From: an uncultured Actinomycetes bacterium
GTDB taxonomy: Bacteria; Actinomycetota; Thermoleophilia; UBA2241
Assembly: GCA_963767005.1 (NCBI GenBank)
Contig: CAVYCN010000002.1
Location: forward strand, 576,001-640,000
DNA: 64,000 nucleotides
Direction of reading: 5' to 3'
This document shows, piece after piece, positions 7,666 to 23,095 of the stretch (position 1 is the first letter of the stretch; the number at the start of each line of letters is the position of its first letter). The notes below the pieces were generated by a model that was not told the DNA's origin, made no database searches, and worked only from the letters and a program-made list of their open reading frames with translations. The position numbers and the translations under genes were made by a program.

Positions 7666-8032
7666 ACCGGAATTGTTCGGACCTCCCCGAGGGCTCGTAT
7701 GAAAGCCCCGTGTAGGGTAGCGGCCCGAGCCTCATCCCGCAAGCTCCGCGCCGCCAGCCGAAATGAAGACTAACTTCATCCGCTTTTTCGGTCAACCGTT
7801 CCCGGCGAGCCGCGTCCGCAGCGCCGCCGCCGGGGCCGGCTCTACCGTCAGCGCGGTCGGGCGCTCTACGGTGACGGCGCTCGTGCAGCTTGCGGTCGCG
7901 GCGGTCGTGCACCTCGCCGACGCGCCGACGTCACCTCGACGGGCGCTCTCGTCATCTGTCGACGACGAAAGCCCGTCGCTAGGGTCGTGGCCGCACGGAG
8001 AAGCCCGGACGACGTCGACCCCCGGAGGAGCA

Positions 8033-8833
8033 GTGAACACGCAGCCATCCCTGACCAACACCGAGCGCCGCGACGACGTGCTGTTCCTGGTGCAGCGCTA
8101 CGAGGCGACCGGCCAGCGCCCGCCCGACCTGCTCGACGACGACGACAAGCGACGCTTCCTGGCCGGCGACACGCACACTCAGCACCGCCTCTTCTTCCGC
8201 CTGCTGTGCTACGGAGCGCTCGCCGCGCAGCCGGCCCCCGAGGCGCTCGTGCGCGCCGACTGGCAGCGCCTGCGCGCCGCCGGACTGCCCGACGACATCT
8301 TCGACCGTCGTTTCGACGTCGAGCGCTTCGCCGCGGCGGCGCCGGTGGCCCGCACCGACAGCAAGGGCCGCGTCATCGACTTCGTGCGGCTCTCGGAGAC
8401 GCGCGACGTGTGGGCCCGCCTGCTGCCTTGGCCGGCCGACCCCGCGACGGTCGTCGACGTCCTCTACGCCTGCTCCGGCGGCGCCCTCAAGTCGCGCGCC
8501 TTCTGGGTCGTGCGCGAGATGATCAGGATCGGCCTGTGGCAGCCCGCCGGTCTCGACCGCTTCGCCTGCGTCCCCGACGGACGCGTGCGCAAGCGCGCGG
8601 CCCGCATCGGTCTCGTCGATTGTGACGAGAAGGCCGACGCGATCGACGACATGAAGCTCGTCTCGGCCGGACTGCATGCGGCCCTCGGGCTCGGCGGCAA
8701 CGGCACGCGCAGCTACTTCGACCTGCCGCTGTCGACCGCCGAGCAGCGCTGCGAGGTCTGCGACCGCGAGCGCATGGCCGAGTGCGCCATGCCCCACTGC
8801 CGGCACCGACGGGCGACGCTCGGCGCCGACTAG
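8033..8833 (+). CDS. Hypothetical protein, divergent HhH-GPD/N-glycosylase-like with C-terminal four-Cys motif
   Basis: GGAGGAG SD before GTG 8033; VPDGRVRKRAARIGL resembles the HhH-GPD helix; terminal C-x2-C-x7-C-x4-C. Confidence 0.6.
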   Translation: MNTQPSLTNTERRDDVLFLVQRYEATGQRPPDLLDDDDKRRFLAGDTHTQHRLFFRLLCYGALAAQPAPEALVRADWQRLRAAGLPDDIFDRRFDVERFAAAAPVARTDSKGRVIDFVRLSETRDVWARLLPWPADPATVVDVLYACSGGALKSRAFWVVREMIRIGLWQPAGLDRFACVPDGRVRKRAARIGLVDCDEKADAIDDMKLVSAGLHAALGLGGNGTRSYFDLPLSTAEQRCEVCDRERMAECAMPHCRHRRATLGAD

Positions 8834-8889
8834 GCGCGCAGCGAAGCTACGCCAGCTTGAGCGGCGGCGACGAGGTCGACCCGACCGGC
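8830..8889 (+). repeat. Dispersed ~59-bp REP-like repeat, related to the 44814-44910 copies
   Basis: CTAGGCGCGCAGCGAAGCTACGCCAGCTTGAGCGGCGGCGACGAGGTCGAC closely matches the reverse complement of 44852-44908. Confidence 0.8.
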
Positions 8890-8896
8890 GCGACCG

Positions 8897-11407
8897 CTAC
8901 TTGACCGTCAGCGTGAGCGTGGCCGGCTTGGCCTGCCCGTTGCCGGCCAGGTCGGTCGCGGCGATCGTCACGCGGTAGACGCCGCGCGCCGCGGGCTTGA
9001 ACGCCCAGGCGGTGCGGGCACCGACCGCGACGGCCGGCAGCGTGACCGACTTCACGACCGCGCCGGCGCCCGACTTCACGATCAGCGTCACGCTCGCCCG
9101 CGGGCTCATGGCGTCGGCCACCCGATAGCCCAGGTGCACCGTGTGGCCGTGCTTCATCGTCACGGCGGTCGAGATCCACGACGCGGTCGGCGGCGCGGTG
9201 TCGACGTAGCCGCGTACCGTCACGGCGACCGTGCCCACCGTGTTCACCGCCCTCACCGCGACGGCGTAGGCGCCATCGGGCAGCGTCGCGCCCGCGCCAC
9301 CATGGCCGTCCCAGGCCCAGGTGTGCGCCCCGCTCGCCAGGGTGCCCAGCGCGGCGCGACGCACGACCTTGCCGGCGGCATCGGACACGCTCACGGTCAC
9401 CTTGGCGTTGCGTGTCGTGCGAAACGACAGCGTCGTCGCATCGTGCACGCCGTCGCCGTTCGGCGACAGCCAGACCGGCGTGAGGCGCGGATGGCCGAGC
9501 GTGTCGTCGACGACCAGGCTGTGCGTGGCCGTGGTCGAGTTGCCGGCCGGGTCGGTGGCCTGGAGCGTCAGGCTGTACGTGCCGTCGGGCGCGGCGCTCA
9601 GGCCGGTCGCGCCGCTCACCTTGCCGTCCCACGACAGCCGCGCACTGCCGGCGCGGACGGCGAGCGGCGCGAGCGTGCGCACCAGCACGCCGCGCGCGTC
9701 GCGCACCACGAGACCGACGCTGCAGCTCTCGCTGACGGAGAAAGTGAGGCCGACGGTGTCGGCGAGGCGGTCGCCGTTCGGGCTGATCAGCGCCGGCGAC
9801 AGCTTCAGGCCGGTCACCGCCGGCGGCACCGTGTCGAGCCGCACGGCCAGACTCGCGGGCCGTGCCGTGCCGTTCGCGCTCGTCGCGCTGAAGGCGGCGG
9901 TGTAGAGCCCGTCGGGCAGGTGCCGACCGGCGGCGTCGTGACCCGCCCAGGTCGCGGCAGCCGCGGCGCCGGTGCCCGAGAACTGGTCCACGACCGTGCC
10001 GCTCCCGTCGCTCACGGTGATCGTCCAGTCGTCCTTGCCGGAGAGCCCGGCGTGCAACGTGACCGTATCGCGCACCCCGTCGCCGTTCGGGCTGAACGCG
10101 GCCGGCGAGGCGGTGGGCGTGTAGATCTTGGGGTCACCGATGGCCGCGACCGCGGCGCGGATGGTCGGCAGCAGGCCGAACAGCACGTTCCCAGGACACT
10201 CGGTGTAGTTGACCTGCCGATGTCCCGAGATGACCGGTATCCTCACCCACTGGCCGGCGCGGTACTTCTGGGTGGTCAGGCACTCGACTCGGGCGGTGCC
10301 CTGCGGGTCCAGGTGAGACAGGTCGAGCTTCCATGCCAGCAGCCGCTCGAGCGACGAGAGCGCGGCCTTCGAGGGCGCCACGGTCTGGAAGGTGCCGATC
10401 AACGACACGCCCGTGCTCATGCTGTTGAAGCCCAGCACCTGAGCCCCGATCACGGCCTTGGCCACGCCGCCGTAGCGGCCTTCGTAGATGGTGCCGAAGC
10501 GGTCGATCAGGAAGTTGTAGCCGATGTCGTTCCAGCCGTTCACGCGTGTGTGGTAGTAGTAGATGCCGCGCACCAGGGCCGGCGCCTGGGCGCGCGTGTA
10601 GTCGTTGGCGTTCACCGTGTGGTGCACGAACGCACAGCGCACCTGGCCGTAGCTCGGCGACGCCGAGCGCAGGGCCTCGTCGGCGCCCCACTGCGCACGT
10701 GTGACGATCGCGGGTTCGGCCGGGCGCCCCAGCGGGGCGGGCACACCCGGACCCGCGGTGCCTGCGTCGGCGGCGGTCGCAGCGCTGCCGGCCGGCGCCG
10801 CGACGTCGGCCGTCGCGACCGTCGTCTTCGACTCGACGCAGGCCAGACGCACGTCGGTCACCGGCACGGCGCCGCCGCTGAAGGCGACCTCGTACTGCAC
10901 GTAGCGGGCCGCGCCCACCCAGACCGGCTCAGTCACGAGATCGGCACGCCCTTCGACGCTGCCGGCCGGTCCGCCGCCGTCGTCGGCGCGCAGCGTGAAC
11001 CACGGCGTCCAGGTGCGCCGATCGGCGCTCGTGCGCACGTGGAACTCGACCGTGCCGGCCCCGCCGGCCGTCGTGCGGAAGAGGATGCCGATCATGTCGA
11101 AAGGAGCGCCGGCGTCGACGGTCGCCGCGGGGCGTCCGTCGGGGCCGGTCACGTCCGGCAGCGCGAGGGCGCTCCGCAGGGCGGGGCCGTCGGCCACAGC
11201 GGCGACCGGCGCGGCGGCTGCGCCCGGCGTCGCCACGATGAAGCCGGTAGTCGGCGACGACGCCCAGGCGGGCGTCGCCGCGGCGCCCGCCCCCAGGGCG
11301 AGCGCGAGGGCGACCCCGAGCACGGCGGCGAGCCGGCGCGCGGTGCGCGGAGCGGCGGTCCTGGCGGCGGTGAGCGGTCGACCGAGGCGTCGAGACGGAC
11401 TGTGCAT
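8897..11407 (-). CDS. Secreted N-acetylmuramoyl-L-alanine amidase (Amidase_2/PGRP-like) with FlgD-Ig repeats
   Basis: Signal peptide; RAQWGADE, FVHHT, WNDIGYNFLIDRFGTIYEGR, GHR, TECPG; three SPNGD(G/R)...W(D/A)G repeats. Confidence 0.9.
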   Translation of the reverse strand: MHSPSRRLGRPLTAARTAAPRTARRLAAVLGVALALALGAGAAATPAWASSPTTGFIVATPGAAAAPVAAVADGPALRSALALPDVTGPDGRPAATVDAGAPFDMIGILFRTTAGGAGTVEFHVRTSADRRTWTPWFTLRADDGGGPAGSVEGRADLVTEPVWVGAARYVQYEVAFSGGAVPVTDVRLACVESKTTVATADVAAPAGSAATAADAGTAGPGVPAPLGRPAEPAIVTRAQWGADEALRSASPSYGQVRCAFVHHTVNANDYTRAQAPALVRGIYYYHTRVNGWNDIGYNFLIDRFGTIYEGRYGGVAKAVIGAQVLGFNSMSTGVSLIGTFQTVAPSKAALSSLERLLAWKLDLSHLDPQGTARVECLTTQKYRAGQWVRIPVISGHRQVNYTECPGNVLFGLLPTIRAAVAAIGDPKIYTPTASPAAFSPNGDGVRDTVTLHAGLSGKDDWTITVSDGSGTVVDQFSGTGAAAAATWAGHDAAGRHLPDGLYTAAFSATSANGTARPASLAVRLDTVPPAVTGLKLSPALISPNGDRLADTVGLTFSVSESCSVGLVVRDARGVLVRTLAPLAVRAGSARLSWDGKVSGATGLSAAPDGTYSLTLQATDPAGNSTTATHSLVVDDTLGHPRLTPVWLSPNGDGVHDATTLSFRTTRNAKVTVSVSDAAGKVVRRAALGTLASGAHTWAWDGHGGAGATLPDGAYAVAVRAVNTVGTVAVTVRGYVDTAPPTASWISTAVTMKHGHTVHLGYRVADAMSPRASVTLIVKSGAGAVVKSVTLPAVAVGARTAWAFKPAARGVYRVTIAATDLAGNGQAKPATLTLTVK

Positions 11408-11598
11408 GACTCTCCCTTCGCAACCCTGCGGTCAAGGTCGTCACAACCGCCGAAACCTTTACCGCTCGCGGCGCGCTCGCGGCGTGAGCCGGCCGGCGCG
11501 AGCCGCGAACGCCCGCGGGGCGGGCGGCCATGCTGGCCGCCCGCCCCGCGGGCATCGTACAGAAGCGAGCGACCGGCGCGCGGCCGGCCGGCGGTGCG

Positions 11599-12957
11599 CT
11601 ACTTCTTGTCCTCTTTGGCCTGCGTCATGCACGACCACACCGGCTGGTAGACACGGTCGACCTCGCTCGCGTACTCGTCGAGCTCGGTGCGCAGCTCGGT
11701 GATCATGTTCTCCGCGCCGACGTGAGTCGGATGCGCGCCGGTGACCTCGATGATCTCGCGCGAGTGGTGCGGGTTGTCGATCAGCATGCACGGCATGAGC
11801 AGGTTGTGGTTGAAGGGCTGGCGGCGCCGGATCTCCTGGAAGAACGGCGACGAGAAGGCCTGCTTGAGCGACACGTCGTGCACGTTGTCGGTCGCGAAGT
11901 GCGTGAAGATGCAGGGCTCGACCCAGCCCTCGTTGTTGATGTGGATGTAGTGCTTGCCGGCGATGCAGCCCTTGACGTACGGCGCGTCGCCCCAGAAGTC
12001 GACCGGGAAGAGCGCCTTGGTGTTGCGCACGCGCTCGATGCCCTCGCGGAACCGGTTGCGTTCGGCCGGCGTGAGCATGAGGCTCATGTCGGGGTTGGCG
12101 CCGACCGGCATGTAGAGGAAGTTCCAGGCGAGCATCGCGCCCTTCTCGACCATCAGGTCGGTGAACTCGTCGCTGACCAGCATCTCGAAGTTCTTGCGCG
12201 TGACGGTGGCCGAGTAGCCGAACACCATGCCGCGCTTGCGCAGCCCATCCATGGTCTGCATGATCTGGTCGAAGATGCCGGGTCCGCGGCGCGCGTCGGT
12301 GGGCTCCCGGCCGCCCTCGATGCTGAGCATGGGAGCCACGTTGCCGAGCGCGGCCAGGCGGTCGAGGGTGTCTTCGTCGAGCAGCGTGCCGTTCGTATAG
12401 ACCTGGAAGTAGACGTCGGGGTTGGCCGCGTAGAAGTCGAGCAGGTCGGGCCGGAAGAAGGGCTCGCCTCCGAGGATGGTGATCAGGTAGACGCCCATCT
12501 CGTTGGCCTGGTCGACGATCCGCTGCAGGGTGGCGACGTCCATGTCGCTGTCGCGCGAGTACTCGCCGGCGAAGCAGCCCTCGCAGGTGAGGTTGCAGCG
12601 CATGGTGGGGCTGATCAGGATCGTGAACGGCGTGGGCACGCCCTCGCGCTCGGTGAACTCGGAGCGCTTGGCCGAGCCGCGCAGCATGGTGTTGATCACG
12701 AAGCACTCGATGAAGCGGTTGCGCGCCCGCGGGCTGAGCTGCCCGACCACGTGCTTGGCGATGTGCAGCGCGGGGTGGTCCTCGATGACCTTGTCGCGCA
12801 CGAACAGGATCTCCGCCTTGTGCGCCTCGGGCGTGAGCTTCTCGGCGAGATTGAACGCTTTGACGATCTTGCCCTTGTCGTCACTCGTGGCGAGCTTGAG
12901 AATCTGATTGATGGTGCGTCGCTGGACCGCCGTGTACAGGCCCTCGGTGGTGCTCAT
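11599..12957 (-). CDS. Radical SAM protein with C-terminal twitch/SPASM-like cysteines
   Basis: CNLTCEGC; LGGEPF, YTNGT; GCIAG...YIHIN..G.VEPC; PCMLID; GGAGGGGAG SD before ATG 12957. Confidence 0.9.
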   Translation of the reverse strand: MSTTEGLYTAVQRRTINQILKLATSDDKGKIVKAFNLAEKLTPEAHKAEILFVRDKVIEDHPALHIAKHVVGQLSPRARNRFIECFVINTMLRGSAKRSEFTEREGVPTPFTILISPTMRCNLTCEGCFAGEYSRDSDMDVATLQRIVDQANEMGVYLITILGGEPFFRPDLLDFYAANPDVYFQVYTNGTLLDEDTLDRLAALGNVAPMLSIEGGREPTDARRGPGIFDQIMQTMDGLRKRGMVFGYSATVTRKNFEMLVSDEFTDLMVEKGAMLAWNFLYMPVGANPDMSLMLTPAERNRFREGIERVRNTKALFPVDFWGDAPYVKGCIAGKHYIHINNEGWVEPCIFTHFATDNVHDVSLKQAFSSPFFQEIRRRQPFNHNLLMPCMLIDNPHHSREIIEVTGAHPTHVGAENMITELRTELDEYASEVDRVYQPVWSCMTQAKEDKK

Positions 12958-13085
12958 CGTCTCCCCTCCCCTGAGGCTGTCCTCGAGTCTGGCGCCCATC
13001 ATACCAAACGAAGCCGCTCATCTTCGAACCGGTGCGTGCGTGGCTATCCTCATACCCGACCGCGGCGGCTTGCCGCGGCCGTTGA

Positions 13086-13135
13086 CTGCGGCGACATCGG
13101 CGGCGCCGCGCGTGGCGCCGCCGATGTCGCCGCAG
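13086..13135. repeat. Perfect 22-bp inverted repeat in a divergent intergenic region
   Basis: CTGCGGCGACATCGGCGGCGCC-gcgcgt-GGCGCCGCCGATGTCGCCGCAG. Confidence 0.9.
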
Positions 13136-13163
13136 CGGCTACGCATTCGCAGGCCCTACCCCC

Positions 13164-13190
13164 TACAGGAAGCGCACCACCTGTCGATAG
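13164..13190 (+). promoter_or_regulatory. Putative sigma-28 (FliA/WhiG)-like promoter
   Basis: TACAG-N14-GTCGATAG ending 12 nt before the riboswitch; same spacing as the 16553-16579 motif. Confidence 0.45.
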
Positions 13191-13202
13191 ACGGATTGAC
13201 AA

Positions 13203-13271
13203 GGGCAAACCTGCCGCGAGGCAGGGACGCAAAGCCAGAGGTCTTGAGGTGATCAAGATAGCTCGGTTGCC
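13203..13271 (+). ncRNA. Cyclic di-GMP-I (GEMM) riboswitch
   Basis: GGGCAAAC-CTGCC-GCGA-GGCAG-GGACGCAAAGCC-AGAGGTCTTGA...TCAAGATAGCTCGG-TTGCC: GNRA-capped P2, GACGCAAAGC junction, P3 stem, P1 GGCAA/TTGCC. Confidence 0.9.
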
Positions 13272-13407
13272 GCAAACGAGAGCCATCCAGGCTCACAGCA
13301 CCCTCCTCTCTCCGCCTCTGCCCGCGTCGACCCCTCGTCGCCGGCATCAGACCTGACGGTCGGGGCTGCCGGCGTCCCGATCGTCAGTGCGTCGCGGAGG
13401 CGGTGTG

Positions 13408-15018
13408 ATGAAACGCAGATTCCTCGTGGTGGCAGCCGCGCTGCTGGTCGCGGTGGTGCTCGCCTGGGGCGGCACCGCCTGGGCCGACCAGACGAGCGCA
13501 CAGATCGATCCGAGCGTGCTCACGGAGCTCGACGCCGCTGGCGGCGCCAGCGTGCCGGTCATCGTCTATGCGACCCCCGGCCACCTCGCCGACCTGACCG
13601 CAGAGCTCGGCGCGACCAACGTCGATGAATCGCTCGCGCTGATCGGCGCCGTCTCGACCGACGTCACGCCCGACACGATCACAACCGTCGCCGCGCTGCC
13701 CTACACCGACTACGTCGCCGCCGACGCCCCCATCTTCGGCACCGACTATCAGGCGAGTCTCGACGTGACCAACGCCACGATCGGGCTTGGCGCCATCGCA
13801 CCGCCCGCGCCCGTGGCGCACGGGCTCGACGGTGCAGGTGTCGGTGTGGCCGTGCTCGACAGCGGCAGCGCCGACGTACCAGACCTCGATGCCGCCAACG
13901 GCCAGTCGAGGGTCGTCGCCTTCGTCGACTTCGTGAACGGCCGGCGCCGCATGTACGACGACGGCGGGCACGGTACCTTCGTCGACGGCATCATCGCCGG
14001 CAACGGCGCAGGCTCGGTGCCGGTCGACCAGGGCGGCAAGGCCGCGACGCAGTACCGCGGCGTCGCGCCCGACGCGAACATCGTCTCGCTCAAGGTCCTC
14101 GACCGGCACGGCGACGGTCGCTCCTCGGCGCTCGTCGCCGCCATCGCCTGGGCGATCGCCCACCGGCAGCAGTACGACATCCGCGTCATGAACATCTCGG
14201 TCGAGGGGAACGTCACCTGTCCGGCCGCTTACGACCCGGTCGATCGTGCCGTCGACGCCGCCTGGAAGGCGGGCATCGTCGTCGTCTGCGCCGCCGGCAA
14301 CGAGGGCGCGTTCGGCGAAGGCGGCATCCTCTCCCCCGGCAACGATCCCTACGCGGTCACCGTCGGCGCCGCCGATACGCAGCAGACCGACGACCCGAGC
14401 GACGACGCCGTGTGCTCGTACAGCTCGATCGGTCCGACCCAGTTCGACGAGTTCGCCAAGCCCGACATCGTCGCCCCCGGCAACCACATCGTCTCGCTGC
14501 GGGCGCCCGGGAGCTGGGTCGACCTGAACTACCCGCAGACTCGCGTGCCGGTGTCGAGCTACATCCCGGGCGCCTCCAACTGGACACCGAGCGCCTACGC
14601 CGTCATGTCGGGCACGAGCGCCGCGGCCCCGGTCGTCGCCGGCGCGGCGGCGCTCATGATCCAGCAGGACCCGACGCTCACGCCGGGCGAGGTCAAGCTG
14701 CGCCTCATGGACAGCGCTCAGCCGATCGCAACGAGCGACAAGTACGCCGCGGGCGCCGGTGAGCTCGACGTCGCGGCCGCCCTCAAGGACGGGGCGACCA
14801 CGACCGGCTACGACACCTCCGCCAAGCTCGGCAACGGCACCACGATCCTGCCGATCGACGTCCAGCTCCAGTGGCAGCGCTACAGCTGGTCGCGCTATAG
14901 CTGGTCGCGCTACAGCTGGTCGCGCTACTCGTGGTCGCGCTACAGCTGGTCGCGGTACTCCTGGTCGAGATACACCTGGAGCAGGTACTCGTGGTCGGTG
15001 ATCATCGACGGGGAGTGA
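13408..15018 (+). CDS. Secreted S8 subtilisin-like serine peptidase with C-terminal (RYSWS)8 tail
   Basis: Sec signal (MKRRFLVV...AWA); triad VAVLDSG, GHGTFV, MSGTSAAAP; oxyanion AAGN; KPDIVAPG; GGAGG SD. Confidence 0.93.
   Translation: MKRRFLVVAAALLVAVVLAWGGTAWADQTSAQIDPSVLTELDAAGGASVPVIVYATPGHLADLTAELGATNVDESLALIGAVSTDVTPDTITTVAALPYTDYVAADAPIFGTDYQASLDVTNATIGLGAIAPPAPVAHGLDGAGVGVAVLDSGSADVPDLDAANGQSRVVAFVDFVNGRRRMYDDGGHGTFVDGIIAGNGAGSVPVDQGGKAATQYRGVAPDANIVSLKVLDRHGDGRSSALVAAIAWAIAHRQQYDIRVMNISVEGNVTCPAAYDPVDRAVDAAWKAGIVVVCAAGNEGAFGEGGILSPGNDPYAVTVGAADTQQTDDPSDDAVCSYSSIGPTQFDEFAKPDIVAPGNHIVSLRAPGSWVDLNYPQTRVPVSSYIPGASNWTPSAYAVMSGTSAAAPVVAGAAALMIQQDPTLTPGEVKLRLMDSAQPIATSDKYAAGAGELDVAAALKDGATTTGYDTSAKLGNGTTILPIDVQLQWQRYSWSRYSWSRYSWSRYSWSRYSWSRYSWSRYTWSRYSWSVIIDGE
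14878..14997 (+). repeat. Eight in-frame 15-bp repeats encoding RYSWS (seventh is RYTWS)
   Basis: Peptide conserved while codons vary (Arg CGC/CGG/AGA/AGG; Ser AGC/TCG/TCC). Confidence 0.95.
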
Positions 15019-16544
15019 GCGGCGCCTCTGAGCCGATGCGCCCGGCAGCGGCCGCGCAATCGCGCGCGGCCGTCACCGCGTTCGTCGTCGCGACGGCGCT
15101 CGCCGCCTGCGCGGCTCTCGTCTTCGCCCACACCCAGGGCGCCGCCGACCTGCCTCCCGGCGTGCTCGCCTTCGTGGTGCTCGTGTTCGTCACCAGCCTG
15201 CGCGACGTGCGCCTTCCGGTGGTCGGCCACGTCACGCTCACGTTCGTGCCGGTGCTCGCCGCGCTCGTCGTCTTCGGTCTCTGGCCGGCGCTCGTCGTCG
15301 TCGTCTTCTCGGGCCTGGCGACCATCGGGGTCACGCGCGACCCCGAGAAGATCCTCTTCAACGTCAGCAGCTACATCGTCGCGATGTTCGCGGCCGGCAC
15401 CGTCTATCTCGTGCTCCTGCCCGCCGCGCCCACCCTGTCGACGAAGGTCCTGCCGGCCTTCGCCGCCACCGGGGCCGACTTCCTCGTCAGCACGGCCATG
15501 CTGGCCACGGTGATCGCACTGTCCTCGCAACAGAACCCCGTTGTCGTCTGGCAGCGCAACTACCAGTGGGGCTTCCCGAGCTACCTCACGGGCGCCTCGC
15601 TCGCGCTGTGCGTCGCCTGGCTCTACCTGCGGATCGGCGTCGCCGGGCTCGCGCTCGGCGTGCCGCCGCTGTTCCTCATCTGGTACTCCTACGACGTCTA
15701 CACCGGACGCCTGCGCGACCGTGCCGCGTACACGAGCGAGGTGGCTTCGTTTCGCGAGGAGCTCGCCGCCGCGGTACGCTCGCAGGACGAGCTGCGTTCC
15801 GCTCAGCACCGGGTCGCCGCCGAGATCGAGCGGGCGCGCGGCATCCAGGCCGACCTGCTGCCGCGCCAGGCGCCCGACGTACAGGGGCTCGAGCTCGCCC
15901 ACCGCATCGAGTTCATGACCGAGATGGGCGGCGACTACTTCGACTTCGTCCCGCTGGACGACGGCCGCCTGGGCATCGTCTGTGGCGACGTCATGGGCAA
16001 GGGCCTCGCGGCCGCTCTCATCATGACGATGGCGCGCAGCATGATCCTCGGCGCCGCCCGCGACGGACGCCGCCCCGGCGAGGTCCTGTCGGCGGTGAAC
16101 GATGGCCTGACCCGTGATCTCGCCGGCCAGTCGGCGCCCTCGTTCCTGACGCTCGCCTACGCCATCTACTCGCCGTCACAACGCGAGCTCGTCATCGCCA
16201 ACGGCGGACACAACCCGCTGCTCGTGTTCGGCTCCGGCGGGCGCCGCGAGCTGCCCTCGCGGGGCAGCATGCTGGGCGTGCGCACCGACCTCGAGTTTCC
16301 CGAGGACCGTGTCGCGCTCGCGCCCGGCGACTCGTTCGCGCTCTTCACCGACGGTCTCACCGAGGCTCGCGGCGAGGACCGCGAGCTCTTCGGCGTGGAG
16401 CGTCTCGCCGACTCCCTGGCCGACGCCTCCGGCACCTCGGCCGCGGCGACCGTCGAGGCCGCCTGGCAAGCGGTGAGCGACTTCCGCGACGGCACGCCGG
16501 CGAGCGACGACGCCACCCTGCTGATCGGCCGCGTCGTCGCCTGA
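15015..16544 (+). CDS. Membrane-sensor SpoIIE/RsbU-type PP2C phosphatase
   Basis: GTG overlaps the peptidase TGA (GTGA); about 6-7 hydrophobic helices, coiled coil, then ARGIQADLLP, GGDYFD, GDVMGKG, NGGH, FTDGLTEA, DDATL. Confidence 0.9.
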   Translation: MSGASEPMRPAAAAQSRAAVTAFVVATALAACAALVFAHTQGAADLPPGVLAFVVLVFVTSLRDVRLPVVGHVTLTFVPVLAALVVFGLWPALVVVVFSGLATIGVTRDPEKILFNVSSYIVAMFAAGTVYLVLLPAAPTLSTKVLPAFAATGADFLVSTAMLATVIALSSQQNPVVVWQRNYQWGFPSYLTGASLALCVAWLYLRIGVAGLALGVPPLFLIWYSYDVYTGRLRDRAAYTSEVASFREELAAAVRSQDELRSAQHRVAAEIERARGIQADLLPRQAPDVQGLELAHRIEFMTEMGGDYFDFVPLDDGRLGIVCGDVMGKGLAAALIMTMARSMILGAARDGRRPGEVLSAVNDGLTRDLAGQSAPSFLTLAYAIYSPSQRELVIANGGHNPLLVFGSGGRRELPSRGSMLGVRTDLEFPEDRVALAPGDSFALFTDGLTEARGEDRELFGVERLADSLADASGTSAAATVEAAWQAVSDFRDGTPASDDATLLIGRVVA

Positions 16545-16552
16545 TCGAGCCA

Positions 16553-16579
16553 TCCAGAATCGGCGATTTCAGCCGATAC
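16553..16579 (+). promoter_or_regulatory. Putative sigma-28-like internal promoter
   Basis: TCCAG-N14-GCCGATAC just upstream of the anti-sigma kinase gene. Confidence 0.45.
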
Positions 16580-16591
16580 ACAACAGCGGAG

Positions 16592-17365
16592 ATGGTCATG
16601 CCAGCGCACGAGAGCAAGGTGAACCCCGCCACCCTCCAGGTGATGCGCTACGACGCTCGCCGGGGCACGCTGTCGGTCATCGTCGGCGAGGCCAGCGGCA
16701 TCCCGCGCGAGATCCTCGGCCAGCGCGCGATCGAAGCCATGCGGGCGCGCAGCTTCATCTGCCACACGACCGAGGCCGACACGCTGCTGGGCGCCGACGA
16801 GATCTGCTTCATCCCGCGCGGCGACCGCTGCGAGATCGTGAGCATCCACACCAACGGCTGGCGCCGCCACCACGGCGACCATCGCCGCAGCCTCGTCGAG
16901 ATCCTGAACGATCTCGCCGCGGCCGTCGCCCGCGGCACGCTCACGTTCCTCGACCGCGGTGAGCTCGAGGCGGTCAGGGCCGAGGGACACGCCGTGCTCA
17001 CCTGCACGATCGACGACACCGCCTCGCTCGCCCAGGCGCGCGCCGCGGTGGCTCAGGTCCTGTCCGACCACGGCGTCCCCGCCGACGCCCGGCGGCGCCT
17101 CGAGCTCTGCGTCTCCGAGGCCACCACGAACATGCTCGTGCACGGCGGCGGCGGCGGCACCATGAGCCTCGTGCGCGTCGCGGATCGTCTGCGTATCATC
17201 GTCGCTGACCGGGGACCCGGCCTGAACTTCATCAACTGGACCGAGACGGGCTCACGGCAACCCTCGATGGGCTACGGCTACAAGATCATTCTTGATAACC
17301 TTGAGCGCGTGTACCTGCACACCGGCGACGAGGGCACGACCCTCGTCCTCGATCACACGATCTAG
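16592..17365 (+). CDS. RsbW/SpoIIAB-like anti-sigma factor Ser kinase with extra N-terminal domain (start may be ATG 16598)
   Basis: LCVSEATTNMLVHG, IVADRGPG, SMGYG, GTTLVL boxes in the C-terminal half. Confidence 0.82.
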   Translation: MVMPAHESKVNPATLQVMRYDARRGTLSVIVGEASGIPREILGQRAIEAMRARSFICHTTEADTLLGADEICFIPRGDRCEIVSIHTNGWRRHHGDHRRSLVEILNDLAAAVARGTLTFLDRGELEAVRAEGHAVLTCTIDDTASLAQARAAVAQVLSDHGVPADARRRLELCVSEATTNMLVHGGGGGTMSLVRVADRLRIIVADRGPGLNFINWTETGSRQPSMGYGYKIILDNLERVYLHTGDEGTTLVLDHTI

Positions 17366-17379
17366 AAGGGACGGGACCG

Positions 17380-17694
17380 ATGCTGCACACGCGCGTTGAG
17401 ACCGCGGACACGCCCGTCATCCACCTCGAGGGCGAGATCGACCTCGACTCGGCGGAGACGTTCCGTTGGGTCGTGACCGACGCGGTGCGAGGCGCGACCC
17501 AGGTCGTGCTCGACTTCGCCAAGGTCACGTTCATCGACTCGTCCGGCACGGGGCTGCTCGTCCGCCTCTGCCTCGACTACAAGTCGCAGGGCGTGCGGCT
17601 GCTCCTCACCAACATCCCGCCCGCCGTCGACGACGTCTTCACCATGCTCAAGGTGCGGACCCTCGTCGGCGACGAATCGTTCCTCGACGCCTAG
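17380..17694 (+). CDS. STAS-domain anti-sigma factor antagonist (RsbV/SpoIIAA-like)
   Basis: LEGEIDL, VVLDFAKVTFIDSSG (phospho-Ser motif). Confidence 0.92.
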   Translation: MLHTRVETADTPVIHLEGEIDLDSAETFRWVVTDAVRGATQVVLDFAKVTFIDSSGTGLLVRLCLDYKSQGVRLLLTNIPPAVDDVFTMLKVRTLVGDESFLDA

Positions 17695-17761
17695 CCTCCC
17701 GCCGCGGCGCTGCTCCCGGCGGGTCCGCCGCGCGCCCCGACGCAGGTCCGCGCGCCGCGAC

Positions 17762-18280
17762 TCAAGCCGAGATCGTCTTCTCACCCGGGCGCCAGTCGAC
17801 CGGGCACAGCTCCCCGGTCTGCAGCGCCTGCAGCACCCGCAGCGTCTCATCGGTATTGCGCCCCACGTTGTTGTCGTGGACGACCATGTACCGCAGCAGC
17901 CCCTCGGGGTCGACGATGAAGGTGCCACGCAGGGTGTGTCCCTCGTCGGGTAGCAGCACGCCGTAGCTGCGCGCCACCTCGCGCGTGAGGTCGGACAGCA
18001 GGGGGAAGCCGAGCTCGCCGAGGTCGTGCTCACACCAGGCGAGGTGACTGTACTTGCTGTCGACGCTCGCCCCGAAGACCTTGGCTCCCAGGGCCTCGAA
18101 CTCGCCGCAACGCTGCGCGAAGCCGCGGATCTCCGTCGGGCACACGAACGTGAAGTCGAGCGGATAGAAGAACAGCACGACCCAGTTGCCGCGCTGGTGG
18201 GCGAGCGTCACGGTGACGAAGTCGCCGTCGAGCACGCCGTCGAGGGTGAAGTCGGGGGCTGGCTGGCCTACCTGGATCAC
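17762..18280 (-). CDS. ahpC: 2-Cys peroxiredoxin (AhpC/Prx1 family)
   Basis: FFYPLDFTFVCPTE, GRNTDE, LCPVDW; AGGAG SD before GTG 18280. Confidence 0.9.
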   Translation of the reverse strand: MIQVGQPAPDFTLDGVLDGDFVTVTLAHQRGNWVVLFFYPLDFTFVCPTEIRGFAQRCGEFEALGAKVFGASVDSKYSHLAWCEHDLGELGFPLLSDLTREVARSYGVLLPDEGHTLRGTFIVDPEGLLRYMVVHDNNVGRNTDETLRVLQALQTGELCPVDWRPGEKTISA

Positions 18281-18404
18281 GAGCGCTCCTTCGTCGTCCC
18301 GGCCGCCGCGACGCAGGGGTTCGGCGGATCGGCGAAGACAGATACCCCGTGCCGTGCCCTTCCAAGCCGGGCCGGCGGGTCGGCGGGCAGCCCGCCGGCC
18401 GGCC

Positions 18405-18752
18405 CTAGGCGGCGCGCGGCGCCGCGCGGCAGTCCGTGACCGCGCAGCGCTCGTCGGTGTACCGGCGGTAGCGCTCGAGGTCGTCGCGCAGGCGCTCGCG
18501 CACCCGCCGCGCCTCGTCGGGCGCGCCGGTCGGCTCGTAGGCCAGCTCGACGGTGACCGCGACCTGGCCATCGGCCTCCCGCGCGAACGTCACCGTGCCG
18601 CGCTCCACCGGGCTCTCGTCGACCCACCAGCGCGAGTCGGCGACGCTGCGCGGCCGGCCCGCGCTCCTCGACGCGAACACGTATTCGTCCCACGCGCGAC
18701 CCGCAAAACGCGCCGGTACGTCGGTGCGGATCGACTCGCTGATCGTCTCCAT
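18405..18752 (-). CDS. Small hypothetical protein, possibly SRPBCC/cyclase-like
   Basis: AGGAGT SD; METISESIRTDVP...GTVTF...VTVELAYEP...DDLERYR. Confidence 0.6.
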   Translation of the reverse strand: METISESIRTDVPARFAGRAWDEYVFASRSAGRPRSVADSRWWVDESPVERGTVTFAREADGQVAVTVELAYEPTGAPDEARRVRERLRDDLERYRRYTDERCAVTDCRAAPRAA

Positions 18753-18888
18753 CGCCACTCCTTCTCGCATGCGAATCCGCTGCCACTGTCCCTGTCCGAG
18801 CCGACCTCCAAACCAGCGCGAGGGCCACCCGGCACCCGCCGGCGCAATCGCCGGTTAGTGTCGGGCCGCGCGCCGGTACTTTCACCTC

Positions 18889-19716
18889 ATGGCAAGCGAG
18901 CCGACCGGTCTCACCGCGACGAGCGACATGCTCGACGAGGCCCGTGCCCTCATCGACGAGGCGCGGGCGGGCGGCGTGACGCTGCGCCTCGTCGGCGGCC
19001 TGGCCGTGCGCGCCCACTGCGCCGCGCCGGTGCTGTGCGAGCGGCCCTGCCGCGACATCGACCTCGTCGCGCCGCGCCGCGCGGGGCGCGCGGTCGGCGC
19101 GCTGCTCGACGGCCTCGGCTGGACCGAGAACCGCCAAGTGGCGATGGCGGCGGCGGGCCGCAAGCGCCAGTTCTTCCGCGGCTGCCGCCACGCCACCTCC
19201 GCCGGCAACGCCCATGTCGACGACCGCGTCGACCTGTACCTCGACGCCTTTCGGCTGCACCACACGATCGACCTGCGCGAGCGCCTCGACCTCGATCCCT
19301 ACACCGTGTCGCTGTCCGACGTGCTGCTCGTCAAGCTGCAGCGCACCCAGGCCGAGCCCGACGACGTGCGCGACATGCTCGGTGTGCTCGAGAGCGCCGG
19401 CGCGCTGGGTGAAGACGACGGCCCCGGGATCCTCAACCTCGACTACCTGACCCGGCTCTGCGCGGCCGATTGGGGCCTCTGCCACGACGTGGAGCGCAAC
19501 CTCGCGCGCTGCCGCGACGCCCTCGCCACGCCCGCGCGGCGAGACCCTGGCGTCCAGCGTGCGCCGGCCCGTCTCGACGCCATCGCAGCGGCCCTGGCGG
19601 GAGCGCCGCGGAGCTGGCGCTGGCGGCTGCGCGCCGCCCTGGGCGAACGGCTCGCCTGGCACGAGCCGGTCGACGACGTCGAGGGCGTGACCTTCGCCCC
19701 GGGCGAGCGGCCCTGA
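18889..19716 (+). CDS. Putative Pol-beta-superfamily nucleotidyltransferase of unknown function
   Basis: LRLVGGLAV...RDIDLV motif, VDLYLD, LLVKLQ...DVRD, DWGL; paralogous to the C-terminal domain of 38221-40275. Confidence 0.7.
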   Translation: MASEPTGLTATSDMLDEARALIDEARAGGVTLRLVGGLAVRAHCAAPVLCERPCRDIDLVAPRRAGRAVGALLDGLGWTENRQVAMAAAGRKRQFFRGCRHATSAGNAHVDDRVDLYLDAFRLHHTIDLRERLDLDPYTVSLSDVLLVKLQRTQAEPDDVRDMLGVLESAGALGEDDGPGILNLDYLTRLCAADWGLCHDVERNLARCRDALATPARRDPGVQRAPARLDAIAAALAGAPRSWRWRLRAALGERLAWHEPVDDVEGVTFAPGERP

Positions 19717-19858
19717 CGATCGCTCGACCGCGCGCGTCGGCTCTGGTCCCGGAACCGACGCCGCCTTCGCCCTTGTTGCGACGCGGCCACGCTGCGACGA
19801 TACTGTGGCAACGTCTTCGGCCCGTCCGCCGTCGCACGAGTGATCGGGGGGATCGCCG

Positions 19859-22800
19859 GTGTCGACCGTGCGCACGCCACGCCGCACCACGCCGCGCCGA
19901 GGCGTCCGGCCCCCGGGCACGCCGGGCGGGCGCCCCGCGCTGCGGCACGCCGCGCGCCAGCCCCAGCGGCTCATGCGCAGCGTCCTCGGCCCGGTCGACA
20001 TCGCCGCCTCGACCATGGCCAACATCGCCCCGGCCATGAGCTTCTACTTCGGCTTCGGCTTCCTCGCGCTCACGGCCGGCATCGCCTCGCCGCTCACGAT
20101 CGTCGCCGCCGGCGTCGCCATCGCCTTCCTGGCCAACACGCTGGCGCAGTTCTCGCGGGCCCATCCGTCGACCGGCTCGTTCATCACCTTCATCGGCAAG
20201 GCGTTCGGCCCGACGAGCGCGATCGCGACCGCCGTCATCCTCATCACCGGCTACGTGATCGCCATCATCTCGGTGCTCGTCATGTCGGGCGGTTTCACGG
20301 CCATCTTCCTGCACCGTTACGTGCCCGGCGTACCGGCCTCGTCGTGGCCCTGGTTCATGGTCGTCTTCGTGAGCGCGGCCGCCTACCTCATGGTGCGCGG
20401 CGTGCACATCTCGACTCGCTGGGCCGGGATCTTCTTCGCTTTCGAGATCGCGGTACTCGTCGTGGTCACGTTCAGCGCCCTGATCCACCACGCCGACCAC
20501 CTGACGCTCCATCCGTTCGACCCGCGCTACCTGTCGAACGGCTTCAAGGGCCTGGGCCTCGGGTTCCCGCTGGCCGTGTACCTGTTCATCGGCTGGGAGA
20601 ACTCGGCCGCCCTCGCCGAGGAGACCGAGAACCCGCGCCGCAACGTGCCCCGCGCCCTCTTCGCCAGCGTCGGCCTGATGATGCTGAGCTACGTCCTGTT
20701 CGCCTACGCCACCGTCGAGGGCTTCGGCGAGAACGTCGCCGCCCTGACCGCCGCGCCGATCCCCTTCATCACGCTGGCCGACAGCGTGCTCGGCGTGCTC
20801 GCCTTCCTCGCCTACCTCGCCGGCGTGACGTCGACCCTCGCCTGTCTGATCGCCGCGGTGAACTCGCAGTCGCGCCTGCTGTTCCACGCCGGCCGCGAGG
20901 GTCTGCTGCCGTCGTGGGTCGGCCGCGTGTACGCGCGCCGGCGCACGCCGGTGAACGCCCTCATGACCTTCACCGGTATCGGCCTCGTGCTCGTCTTCGC
21001 CTGGTCGTTCGGGCAGCACATCGACCCGGTGACGCTGTTCGCCGAGGCCTCGACGCTCGGCACCATCCTCGTGGTCGTCGTCTATCTCGTCGCCAACCTG
21101 GCACTGCCGGTCTTCTACCGCAAGCACCACCCCGACCAGTGGTCGCCCCTGCCCCACCTCGTCATCCCGCTCGTCGGCGCCGGCCTCATCGCCCTGCCGA
21201 TCTACGAACTCGTCAAGCCGGGGCAGGCCTCACCCTACGACCTGTTCCCGTACGTGGCGCTCGCGGTGATCGTGGTCGCCGTGGCCTACGCGGTGGCGCT
21301 GAACGCGCGCGACAAGACCTTGGCCGACCGCGTCGGCTCGCTCGTCGCCGACGACGCCGCCGACGGCAAGTTCGCCGGCTTCCTCGACGATGACGAGGAG
21401 CAGGTCCGCCACCTGCATCGCATCGCCCGCTGCCTGAACGAGGACCGCGACACCAAGCCGGCCCTGCAGAACGCCTTGCGCGTCGTCGCCGAGACGCTGG
21501 GCGCCGCCTCGGCGGCCGTGTTCGTCGTGCGTCCGGGCGACGTCGCCGAAGCCCTCACCGTCTGCGGCGACGCGCGCCGCAGCTTCCCCTACGCGCCGCT
21601 CGATCTCCGCCATCCGCTGCTCGCCCGGCTCGTGCGGCGTCCGGGCCTGCTCGAGGTCGTCGACGTCGACGGCCTGCCAGCGCCCCTGCTCGCCGTCGTC
21701 GCTCCCGACGCCGCCCGGGTCACCCTCGCGCCCCTGCCGGCCGGCCCCGGGGTCGCCGCACTCCTGCTGCTCAGCCGGCGGTCCGACGCTCCGCTCAGCG
21801 CGCGCAAGGCGGCCTTCGTCGCCGTCGTCTGCGAGACCCTGGGACCGGCCATCACGAGCCGCGCGCTGGCCGAAGAGTCGCATCACACGGCGGCCGTGCT
21901 CGAGACCGCCTACGCGGTCTCGCGGGCGATCACCCAGAGCCTCGACCTCGAGCACACCTACCGCGAGATCGCACGAAGCGCGGCGCGCGTCGCACGCGGC
22001 TCCCACTGCCTGTTGTTCGAACTCGAGCGCGGCACGGGCGACCATCTCGCCGTCGCCTGCTCCGATCCGGAGAGCGAGGACCTGCTGGGCACGCGCGTGC
22101 GGCTGCTCGAGAGCGCCGACCGGCCGCGCCAGCGAGCCGGCGGTGGTTTTGTCGTCCGGCCGGCGGCCACCCGCGGCGGCGGCCAGACCAGCAAGTTCTC
22201 GCTGGGCGGCCACCTCGGCGCCCGCCTGGCCGGCATGTTCAACGCCGACTCCTCGGTGCTCGTGCCCCTGTTCGCGCAGCAGGTGCCCGTCGGCTCGCTG
22301 CTCGTGTACGCGGCCGGCCGGCGGCGCCGCTTCTCGCCGCTCGAGGTGGCCGAGCTCGGCAGCGTGGGCGAGCAGGCCGCGATCGCCATCCACAACGCCC
22401 AGCTCTACCGCGACCTCACCGATAGCCGGGCGAGCGTCGAAGCGCTGCTCGGGCGTCTCACGCGGATCCGCGACCAGGAGCGCCAGGGCCTCGCCCGCGT
22501 GGTCCACGACGACATCGTGCAGTCCATCGTGGGCGCGGTCTACCGCCTCGACCTTCTGCGCGACGGCGTGGCCGGCGATCGGGTGGCCGAGTTCGACGAG
22601 GCGGTCGCCGGTCTGCGCCAGAGCATCGACGACGCCCGCCGGGTGATCTGGGAGCTGCGCCCGCCGGCGATCGAGGGCCTCGGCCTGCCGGCGGCGCTGC
22701 GCTCGCTGGCGGAGCGCAGCCACGACGGCGGCGCCCGCGTCGCGGTGTCGATCGAGGACGTCGTCGGCCTCTCCGACGCGGTCACGACCGGCCTCTACAA

Positions 22801-23095
22801 GATCGCCCGCGAGGCCCTCACCAACGCCCTGCACCACGCCGGCGCGCGCCGCATCGGCATCTCGCTCGCCGGCGCGCCCGCGGGCGAGCACGGCGGCGCG
22901 CACCTCGTCGTCGAGGACGACGGTGTAGGCTTCGTGGCCGACGCGAGCCGCGACGGCGGCCACTACGGGACGGTGATGATGGAGGAGCAGGCGACGCTCA
23001 TCGGTGCGACCCTGTCGATCGAATCACAGCCCGGTCGCGGCACGCGCGTCCGGGTCGTCGTGCCGGCGCCCCGCGCCGCGGCGGCGGCGAGATGA
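19859..23095 (+). CDS. APC-family permease fused to GAF domains and a NarX-type (HisKA_3) histidine kinase
   Basis: APC motifs (IAPAMS, PSTGS, GWENSAALAEETENPRRNVP) to ~21355; GAF ending EQAAIAIHNAQLY; H box VVHDDIVQ; EALTNA, DDGVGF, PGRGT; no internal stop; start uncertain. Confidence 0.9.
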   Translation: MSTVRTPRRTTPRRGVRPPGTPGGRPALRHAARQPQRLMRSVLGPVDIAASTMANIAPAMSFYFGFGFLALTAGIASPLTIVAAGVAIAFLANTLAQFSRAHPSTGSFITFIGKAFGPTSAIATAVILITGYVIAIISVLVMSGGFTAIFLHRYVPGVPASSWPWFMVVFVSAAAYLMVRGVHISTRWAGIFFAFEIAVLVVVTFSALIHHADHLTLHPFDPRYLSNGFKGLGLGFPLAVYLFIGWENSAALAEETENPRRNVPRALFASVGLMMLSYVLFAYATVEGFGENVAALTAAPIPFITLADSVLGVLAFLAYLAGVTSTLACLIAAVNSQSRLLFHAGREGLLPSWVGRVYARRRTPVNALMTFTGIGLVLVFAWSFGQHIDPVTLFAEASTLGTILVVVVYLVANLALPVFYRKHHPDQWSPLPHLVIPLVGAGLIALPIYELVKPGQASPYDLFPYVALAVIVVAVAYAVALNARDKTLADRVGSLVADDAADGKFAGFLDDDEEQVRHLHRIARCLNEDRDTKPALQNALRVVAETLGAASAAVFVVRPGDVAEALTVCGDARRSFPYAPLDLRHPLLARLVRRPGLLEVVDVDGLPAPLLAVVAPDAARVTLAPLPAGPGVAALLLLSRRSDAPLSARKAAFVAVVCETLGPAITSRALAEESHHTAAVLETAYAVSRAITQSLDLEHTYREIARSAARVARGSHCLLFELERGTGDHLAVACSDPESEDLLGTRVRLLESADRPRQRAGGGFVVRPAATRGGGQTSKFSLGGHLGARLAGMFNADSSVLVPLFAQQVPVGSLLVYAAGRRRRFSPLEVAELGSVGEQAAIAIHNAQLYRDLTDSRASVEALLGRLTRIRDQERQGLARVVHDDIVQSIVGAVYRLDLLRDGVAGDRVAEFDEAVAGLRQSIDDARRVIWELRPPAIEGLGLPAALRSLAERSHDGGARVAVSIEDVVGLSDAVTTGLYKIAREALTNALHHAGARRIGISLAGAPAGEHGGAHLVVEDDGVGFVADASRDGGHYGTVMMEEQATLIGATLSIESQPGRGTRVRVVVPAPRAAAAAR

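Follow-up and report, generated by a model that had tools for sequence, protein, structure and literature searches.

A subtilase with a five-residue repeat tail beside a MASE9 sensor phosphatase: a candidate peptide signalling operon of an uncultured Thermoleophilia bacterium

The operon and its proposed function

The 64,000-nucleotide stretch of DNA analysed here (hereafter the window), from an uncultured bacterium of the Thermoleophilia, contains an operon, the features of which lie at positions 13164-17694, all on the plus strand. It encodes an S8 subtilase ending in a repeat tail, a membrane phosphatase with a MASE9-type input domain (hereafter the sensor), an RsbW-like serine kinase and a STAS protein. 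Judged from the sequence, the tail has a slightly better than even chance of being a multi-copy peptide precursor, from which peptides are released as signals for the neighbouring sensor. Gene content, gene order, catalytic residues, selection on the repeats, linkage of the genes and a fold model are the observations on which this reading is built. The protease, predicted to be exported, would process its own tail to release about eight Trp peptides of five residues each, and these would bind the MASE9 domain of the phosphatase, reaching its pocket, which is predicted to face inward, either across the membrane or with the help of an oligopeptide transporter. The bound sensor would set STAS phosphorylation against the RsbW-like kinase, and an alternative sigma factor, for which two genes of the SigB/F/G type elsewhere in the genome are candidates, would be released. 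Control by cyclic di-GMP (c-di-GMP) would be exerted twice, by WhiG/RsiG at the promoter and by a riboswitch at translation, and a hairpin past the protease stop would keep the precursor above the receptor.

Strong orthologues of the protease were found in 19 of 24 genomes of one Thermoleophilia family (hereafter the family), the five genomes without one being 51-98 % complete. The order S8 protease, sensor, kinase, STAS protein was kept in all eight same-genus loci and all eight other family loci reaching that far, and the named relatives of the locus are uncultured Thermoleophilia or Actinomycetes genomes. The original prediction of a c-di-GMP-I riboswitch heading four co-directional genes was borne out for each of these elements and its position.

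The protease and its repeat tail

The first gene (13408-15018) encodes a protein of 536 amino acids consisting of a putative signal peptide and propeptide, catalytic domain, linker and repeat tail, and matches PF00082 (E 5e-44). The residues D151, H188, N298 and S404 are present and invariant in 50 homologues, and the subtilisin fold was matched by a structural model, in which the predicted propeptide and subtilisin core are nearest to Tk-SP (PDB 3afg; 9ues was also compared). The N-terminus, assessed by inspection and not with a predictor, is like a Sec signal peptide, with basic, hydrophobic and AWA regions, and A24 and A26 are nearly invariant among homologues. The predicted propeptide, the catalytic fold and the catalytic residues are shared with Tk-SP and subtilisin, whereas the C-terminus carries the repeat tail instead of a folded domain.

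The tail (14872-14997), delimited by repeat and codon analysis and regarded as a candidate multi-copy peptide precursor, starts with W489, continues with eight five-residue units (14878-14997) and is followed by VIIDGE. A tail of the form (RYSWS)8 had been predicted; the eight five-residue units on an S8 protease were there, but only seven read RYSWS and one reads RYTWS. In the TRF program the tail had a period of 15 and a score of 136, the top score of 128 rows in the window. Codon differences among the units were synonymous in 45 cases and non-synonymous in 14, with TCN and AGY codons both used for Ser; the tail is thus no product of DNA slippage. Units identical in protein and different in DNA were seen at 15 of 15 loci, one of which (L031) has mixed units; that the units are held identical at the protein level lends support to the earlier idea of a tail read by the sensor.

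Among 120 listed protease homologues, 117 have the tail, nearly always 87 residues past the catalytic motif, and the three untailed ones look cut or frameshifted. The dominant unit conforms to (S/T/A)-(K/R)-(Y/F)-x-W in all 117 family tails, yet it differs between genomes (SKYAW, TKFAW, TKFKW, TRYRW, SRYSW), and the number of units ranges from about 4 to more than 15. The C-terminal cap past the repeats is conserved as xxx-D/E/N/Q-G-Q/E, with G535 nearly invariant.

At position 308 the protease has Leu in place of the Gly that precedes S/Y-P in Tk-SP and subtilisin, as do 45 of 50 homologues. This Gly presumably shapes the S1 pocket, and Leu308 may narrow it. If so, the chain would be cut behind the small residue that comes after Trp, Tyr/Phe occupying P4, and the cut would yield RYSWS with Trp fourth, which would resemble the ends FKKWS and WLKWD of the micro-peptides described below. 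In an alternative register the chain would be cut directly after Trp.

A few loci depart from the usual arrangement. In L003 (7494-7500, genome G004) a stop follows two units and the remaining tail lies in another frame, from either an assembly error or real loss. At L254, L263, L328 and L350, tailed S8 genes occur in tandem or in pairs whose units differ, and some of these genes have a sensor each. One apparent protease-sensor fusion (P0030), with one frame running through both, looks like a frameshift in the tail and was not counted.

Linkage of tailed proteases and MASE9-like sensors

Outside the family, the phylum was sampled by a search with an alignment of tailed S8 proteins, a query that favoured tails; 80 regions were taken down the ranked list, leaving out genomes marked as unpublished, the seed loci and some further paralogues. 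These regions held 82 S8 genes, of which 63 were Trp-tailed, three of these at a contig edge. A MASE9-like profile was derived from 76 MASE9 genes that had no S8 gene beside them. The next gene after a tailed S8 gene had been expected to carry the same transmembrane (TM) domain, and a MASE9-like gene indeed stood directly after 56 of the 60 Trp-tailed S8 genes with room for it (actinobacterial), compared with none of the 19 tail-less ones, controls that belong to more distant subfamilies. The sensors following tailed S8 genes in this sample have kinase, GGDEF or EAL outputs.

The opposite approach started from Pfam MASE9 matches, of which the first 80 of 112 usable ones were taken, with a 1.5 kb contig-start filter on plus-strand hits and without unpublished genomes, the genome studied here, second tandem members and some weak matches. 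An S8 gene lay upstream of four of the 80 hits, and all four were Trp-tailed.

The sensor phosphatase

The second gene (15015-16544) begins with a GTG that overlaps the protease TGA, its frame starting, as at every locus compared, one base ahead of the protease stop, and encodes a MASE9 domain of eight TM segments, a coiled coil and a PP2C/SpoIIE phosphatase, assigned from domain, motif and model matches. The multi-TM PP2C phosphatase overlapping the protease stop was thus present as anticipated; its match to PF07228 (SpoIIE) has an E value of 5e-48, and the motifs GGDYFD, CGDVMGKG, FTDG and SDDA were found at residues 305, 323, 444 and 497. The membrane part is MASE9 by sequence, at the edge of the Pfam cut-off: it scored 23.5 bits against PF20972 in one scan and 24.7 in another (cut-off 24.3), and 12 close homologues carry the Pfam MASE9 mark. 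K103, F106 and N107 (model numbering; K103 and N107 correspond to K112 and N116 of the protein) occur in 95-100 % of 57 rows, and there are eight hydrophobic segments.

For the known MASE9 proteins, which include Thermotoga TM1467 and Streptomyces venezuelae HdgA, the parts of the reports consulted describe a likewise 8-TM domain with a conserved K-x2-F-N, the ligand of which is unknown and suggested to bind within the membrane (10.1101/2021.11.05.467447; PMC6205966). The outputs described there are HD-GYP or GGDEF-EAL, in contrast to the PP2C phosphatase of the present sensor, and those parts do not mention a protease, peptidase, riboswitch or fold, while here a candidate source of the ligand is encoded next door.

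The model of the MASE9 domain (pLDDT 94) is all-helical and, as a prediction, matched best the S components of energy-coupling factor (ECF) transporters, with Z 14.4 and a root-mean-square deviation of 3.5 over 189 aligned residues. The top 15 rows of the search were all S components (Z 14.4-9.1), the next unrelated row had 7.3, and the best E value in Foldseek was 0.003. The predicted fold is shared with S components (NikM-type 4m5c, RibU 5kbw) over model residues 34-199, but the sensor is 10-16 % identical to them, has extra helices and the opposite predicted orientation, and is fused to a signalling enzyme. The membrane domain therefore appears, from the model, to have the fold of these binders of small ligands, apparently inverted.

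The orientation was predicted from the basic residues, with 1.7-3.1 Lys/Arg per loop on the hairpin side and 0.1-0.6 on the other, an imbalance that places the hairpin loop, loop 4 and loop 6 in the cytoplasm. A pocket lined by the conserved K103, F106 and N107 would then open inward, opposite to RibU, the orientation of which we take as the reference. Simple sensing of the peptide from outside is doubtful with a predicted pocket that faces the cytoplasm. An inward pocket would fit the in-membrane ligand binding suggested for MASE9 in the part of the report consulted (10.1101/2021.11.05.467447).

The linkage of tail and sensor would equally be expected if the tail were left uncut and acted as a docking strip of many contacts, tethering the protease to the outside of MASE9, so that the sensor reports the presence of the protease or is clipped by it. 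The conserved C-terminal cap, needless on a discarded end unless it serves the overlapping start, and the lack of a dedicated cleavage spacer between the units both suit such a strip. The sensor, however, has short outer loops without conservation and its conserved polar residues in the inner half, the repeat number is free, and single-copy micro-peptides pair with the same domain. We consider a docking strip unlikely.

A GC hairpin is conserved within the 5' end of the sensor gene (15046-15075), 20-40 nt past the protease stop, in loci L001-L010 and L023-L032. Its 13-pair consensus in 15 loci includes three pairs with two-sided (compensatory) changes; it is weak or absent in L028 and L029, both outside the 15-locus alignment. 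As a candidate attenuator or mRNA-stability element it may lower expression of the sensor. At four of 17 loci (L025, L026, L031, L032) GTA replaces GTG or ATG at the sensor start; these four have no obvious start before the first helix, and a rare start by translational coupling is possible.

Micro-peptide genes beside other MASE9 sensors

Most MASE9 genes without an S8 neighbour adjoin an open reading frame (ORF) of 20-35 codons, whose product begins with basic residues, continues through a hydrophobic segment to a turn of small residues and closes with 3-6 further residues. When a fixed rule was applied, such a micro-ORF was found within 800 nt upstream on the same strand of 47 of the 80 MASE9 hits, compared with 4-14 in eight other same-strand bins; the numbers with an aromatic end were 35 and 0-4, and those on the opposite strand 23 and 6-15. 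By eye, a micro-peptide was recognised at 65 of 76 MASE9 genes. The ends usually combine Lys/Arg with Trp or another hydrophobic residue: among the 65, Lys/Arg was present in 61, Trp in 42 and Lys/Arg-Trp in 33. Twelve micro-peptides were compared with curated models and none exceeded any cut-off, the best being AgrD (13.2, cut-off 19) and NprX (12.6, cut-off 33).

Both other MASE9 genes of the genome have micro-peptides, one of them two, which end in FKKWS and WLKWD, and full WhiG-type boxes precede these micro-peptide genes too. At G000:C2:227189-229420 (minus strand) a WhiG-type box, two unannotated-looking micro-peptide ORFs, a MASE9-HD-GYP gene and a gene for DUF5317 form one run. At G000:C10:140640-142291 a micro-peptide ORF lies ahead of the third MASE9 gene, and there are two full WhiG-type boxes in the vicinity.

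The pairing of MASE9 with micro-peptides of similar ends fits a peptide ligand for this domain. DUF5317, a membrane protein, is encoded near 28 of 65 peptide loci and near none of 61 tailed S8 regions or ten family loci, the windows being unequal between the sets; its absence at tailed S8 loci is as expected if the S8 protease replaces a processing enzyme. Nine family sensors scored 106-134 bits on a profile of peptide-linked sensors compared with 33-57 on one of other S8-linked sensors, and in a quick tree of 135 rows the family sensors nest, on a long stem, among the peptide-linked ones. The basic and aromatic composition of the family units, for which counts are given below, speaks for the same reading.

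A broader scheme can be proposed, to which we give somewhat less than an even chance. MASE9 would be a widespread receptor for Trp peptides of 4-6 residues on an inward-turned ECF S-component fold, fed by two interchangeable precursor formats, a one-copy micro-gene and a many-copy subtilase tail. The present operon would be a format swap by a micro-peptide-type receptor, which became coupled to a partner switch with two levels of control by c-di-GMP.

Evidence against a released peptide

Several results weigh against a released peptide signal. Self-cleavage, the free peptide and its binding to the sensor are all predicted steps, and with the pocket facing inward a free peptide would need uptake or entry through the membrane; the genome has 22 matches to family-5 binding proteins, none of them assigned. 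The pairing of tail and sensor is not obligatory: in a metagenome sample of 80 loci a MASE9-like gene was present at 26 of the 39 Trp-tail loci with 2 kb of room and at 31 of the 54 with 700 nt of room, and DSIAW-type and several hexapeptide-type tails had no MASE9-like neighbour in view. The predicted linkage, supported at the phylum and family loci, was missing at a third of the metagenome loci with room. The basic and aromatic character of the units, universal in the family (117 of 117 for each) and rarer elsewhere (basic in 20 of 63, aromatic in five of 63), counts as one event, the family being a single lineage. DUF5317 is missing at 37 of 65 peptide loci, in windows unequal between the sets, and an approximately unbiased test on 37 of the 135 rows of the tree did not reject a single clade of S8-linked sensors (p 0.24).

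Unit and sensor had also been expected to co-vary. In a partial Mantel test of unit distance against sensor distance, with protease relatedness removed, the 38 pairs outside the family showed no co-variation (partial r 0.03, p 0.33). The value for all 46 pairs (partial r 0.12, p 0.017) was driven by the family, in which eight related pairs gave a partial r of 0.41 (p 0.04). Beyond shared descent, the expected co-variation was thus not found outside the family, and unit distance tracks the protease better than the sensor.

The closer tie of the unit to the protease lineage than to the sensor, and the lack of a sensor at a third of the metagenome tail loci with room, would suit a structural or adhesive tail, rich in Trp, Tyr and Lys, which binds membrane, wall or matrix or self-assembles, while the sensor reads the product of the protease on outside proteins. 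The cationic aromatic composition agrees with such a role, as do related S8 proteases with Trp-free hexapeptide tails (L356 and L361, of the GVVIGE and GVLLSD types). A scaffold, however, needs no identical units at every position while synonymous sites differ, and AlphaFold gave the tail no fold, a solenoid included (pLDDT <50 for residues 472-536), although in the case of repeats such a result is weak evidence. The micro-peptide, the alternative partner of the sensor, also has the same kind of end. A purely structural tail is accordingly regarded as quite unlikely.

Kinase, STAS protein and output

The RsbW-like kinase and the STAS protein with DSSG named in the original prediction were both found, and the kinase has an additional unnamed domain. 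The kinase gene (16592-17365) encodes a serine kinase of the RsbW/SpoIIAB type, in which HATPase_c_2 covers only residues 142-253 (PF13581, 50.7 bits, cut-off 27.4). The GHKL motifs SEA-x2-N, D-x-G-x-G and GYG are nearly invariant and the nearest solved structures are SpoIIAB and RsbW, but the protein lies far below the family cut-offs of RsbW (17.4, cut-off 155) and SpoIIAB (25.4, cut-off 135). The N-terminal domain of 138 residues (16592-17005) is highly conserved, with a His/Arg-rich motif and a conserved Cys, and is restricted to the family, where it occurs in 18 of 24 genomes. Residues 1-138 had no match in Pfam or NCBIfam, no usable match in the Atlas and no solved relative at E <1; with a full-length homologue as query, HATPase clusters alone were matched. 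The STAS gene (17380-17694) encodes an anti-sigma-antagonist-like protein (TIGR00377, 62.8 bits, cut-off 53.45) with the putatively phosphorylated Ser in DSSG at residues 53-56, a motif present in all 15 orthologues compared.

By analogy, a sigma factor would be the output of the operon. As predicted, no sigma factor gene was found among the ORFs of window positions 8000-23000. The genome has two SigB/F/G-type sigma factors, one with its own RsbW-like neighbour; the other, SigB/F-like, lies in a pilus cluster and is present in 21 of 24 family genomes. As exclusive partner the latter was rejected, being present in genome G020 and two other families without the module, which counts against the scheme as well.

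Compatible with a peptide signal at the input, kinase and STAS protein may act on a partner other than a sigma factor, for example a diguanylate cyclase or the anti-sigma factor RsiG, as in the sigma-independent STAS switches SiaABC-SiaD, HsbA-FlgM and SypA. The lack of a sigma gene in the locus, the distance of the kinase from the RsbW/SpoIIAB cut-offs with its family-specific domain, the presence of a GGDEF motif in 19 ORFs of the genome and the RsbW-like neighbour of one sigma factor all point this way. The pilus-cluster sigma, which has no adjacent anti-sigma factor, points the other way, and we place a non-sigma output not far short of an even chance.

Riboswitch, promoters and c-di-GMP

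The riboswitch aptamer (13195-13275, plus strand) matched RF03167 (c-di-GMP-I-GGC) with 69.9 bits (gathering score 59), this being the sole Rfam match in the window, and RF01051 with 73 bits (cut-off 35), and has a two-stem structure. It was found in ten of ten same-genus loci and seven of nine other family loci, and the positions that we take to be ligand contacts match the family consensus. In the leader (13276-13407), which would form the expression platform by predicted pairing, the ribosome-binding site GGAGGCGG (13396-13403) has a predicted pairing partner, a pyrimidine tract at about 13298-13319. The binding site is predicted to be paired both with and without the aptamer, so the model gives no direction for the switch.

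Just ahead of the aptamer lies a predicted WhiG/sigma-28-type promoter-like element (13164-13190; TACA, 15 nt, GTCGATAG), supported by conservation of the boxes and likeness to the consensus. The box T(A/T)CAGG...GTCGATAG was present in nine of nine same-genus loci listed, and a G(C/T)CGATA box in nine of nine other family loci, two of them without the riboswitch. The -10 match is a GCCGATAA-like box with a central CGA, of which there are 354 in 6.87 Mb (both strands). The consensus used for comparison was that given in the parts consulted of PMC8325347 and PMC12871210. With TACA at 15 nt compared with T(A/C)AA at 16 nt in the consensus, the -35 region misses the strict pattern; L290 is a full match. 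A second predicted element (16553-16579; TCCA, 15 nt, GCCGATAC) precedes the kinase, recognised by box conservation in nine of nine same-genus loci and found in one of eight other family loci. A scan for sigma-70 promoters and terminators gave nothing above chance.

The genome encodes a WhiG over its cut-off. A strict search for RsiG motifs in the genome found nothing and a relaxed one found a single ORF, a small RsiG-like frame (G000:C2:404690-405001, minus strand) with one motif and His for Gln. Since WhiG-type boxes, WhiG, an RsiG-like gene and the riboswitch occur together, double control is predicted, with transcription of the operon at low c-di-GMP (WhiG/RsiG) and the riboswitch acting on translation. 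A type IV pilin gene (G000:C2:501907-502846, minus strand) is preceded by the only other c-di-GMP-I riboswitch of the genome and by a full WhiG-type box; it sits just behind the SigB/F-like sigma gene inside the pilB-pilT-pilC cluster.

Protease and phosphatase switch could also be merely co-regulated in a WhiG/c-di-GMP surface-colonisation regulon, with no signal between them. The WhiG-type boxes shared with pilin and c-di-GMP genes of the genome would suit this, as would the separate promoter box of kinase and STAS genes in the genus. The membrane domain, however, is the constant neighbour while its output varies (kinase, GGDEF/EAL, HD-GYP, PP2C), and none of the 19 tail-less S8 genes has the sensor, which makes co-regulation alone very unlikely.

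In Rubrobacteria and Thermoleophilia, a WhiG-RsiG-c-di-GMP switch has been described (PMC8325347; PMC12871210), with which the genome has in common a WhiG, an RsiG-like gene of one motif and promoter boxes ahead of its pilin and c-di-GMP genes. As far as these sources were consulted, neither main text names such a protease as a target, and the -35 box of the operon deviates from theirs. New here are the conserved WhiG-type boxes on an operon in a genome with WhiG and an RsiG-like gene, and the unnamed N-terminal domain of the kinase.

Comparison with known systems

The novelty lies in the input module, as the phosphatase, kinase, STAS protein and riboswitch are of known kinds. In the partner switches RsbU/RsbV/RsbW and SpoIIE/SpoIIAA/SpoIIAB, a PP2C phosphatase and a GHKL serine kinase act on a STAS protein with a conserved Ser. 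The operon has the same three parts, but differs in having no sigma gene, an extra kinase domain and a MASE9 input.

In agr, ComCDE and the re-imported RRNPP peptides (Phr/PapR/NprX/SHP/XIP), a short exported peptide is encoded beside the gene of its receptor. This is the likeness to the operon, and an inward pocket would mean a Phr-like loop of export, processing and import. Pfam and NCBIfam scans of the four proteins revealed no AgrB, C39 exporter, histidine kinase or TPR receptor; the candidate precursor is multi-copy and fused to the putative maturase, and the putative receptor is S-component-like by its predicted fold. The operon would work like a peptide pheromone loop, yet falls outside agr, ComCDE and RRNPP by their membership tests.

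Multi-core precursors cut by subtilases are known from yeast alpha-factor with Kex2 and from cyanobactin PatE with PatA/PatG, and borosins are cores fused to an enzyme. Repeated cores and a subtilase are shared with the former, and enzyme and core in one chain with the borosins. The units of the operon, in contrast, have no spacer or recognition motifs between them and there are no tailoring enzymes; the PatA model scored 38.7 (cut-off 421).

The pairing of S8 tail and sensor is not described in the literature searched, most subscription journals and the supplements of papers lying outside the search. To our knowledge, peptide cell-cell signalling is little charted in Actinomycetota. If the tail is a precursor, the orphan MASE9 family would gain its first ligand, and a class of signalling would emerge in which one chain is both precursor and maturase and the receptor goes back to a transporter fold; its outputs would be c-di-GMP enzymes, histidine kinases and, in this operon, a partner switch. 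Exact candidate ligands that are inexpensive to make, RYSWS or SRYSW, follow from the locus, and phosphorylation of the STAS protein offers a soluble read-out, which makes the question directly testable.

Three further observations concern the surroundings of the operon. A divergent radical SAM/SPASM gene (window 11599-12957, minus strand) adjoins it in most of the family, with no link shown. The 3.4 Mb genome (G000) has seven RpoD-like sigma paralogues (L155-L161) and a SigH-like sigma factor (L169). Downstream, at window 19859-23095 (plus strand), an amino-acid permease is fused to GAF and histidine kinase domains.

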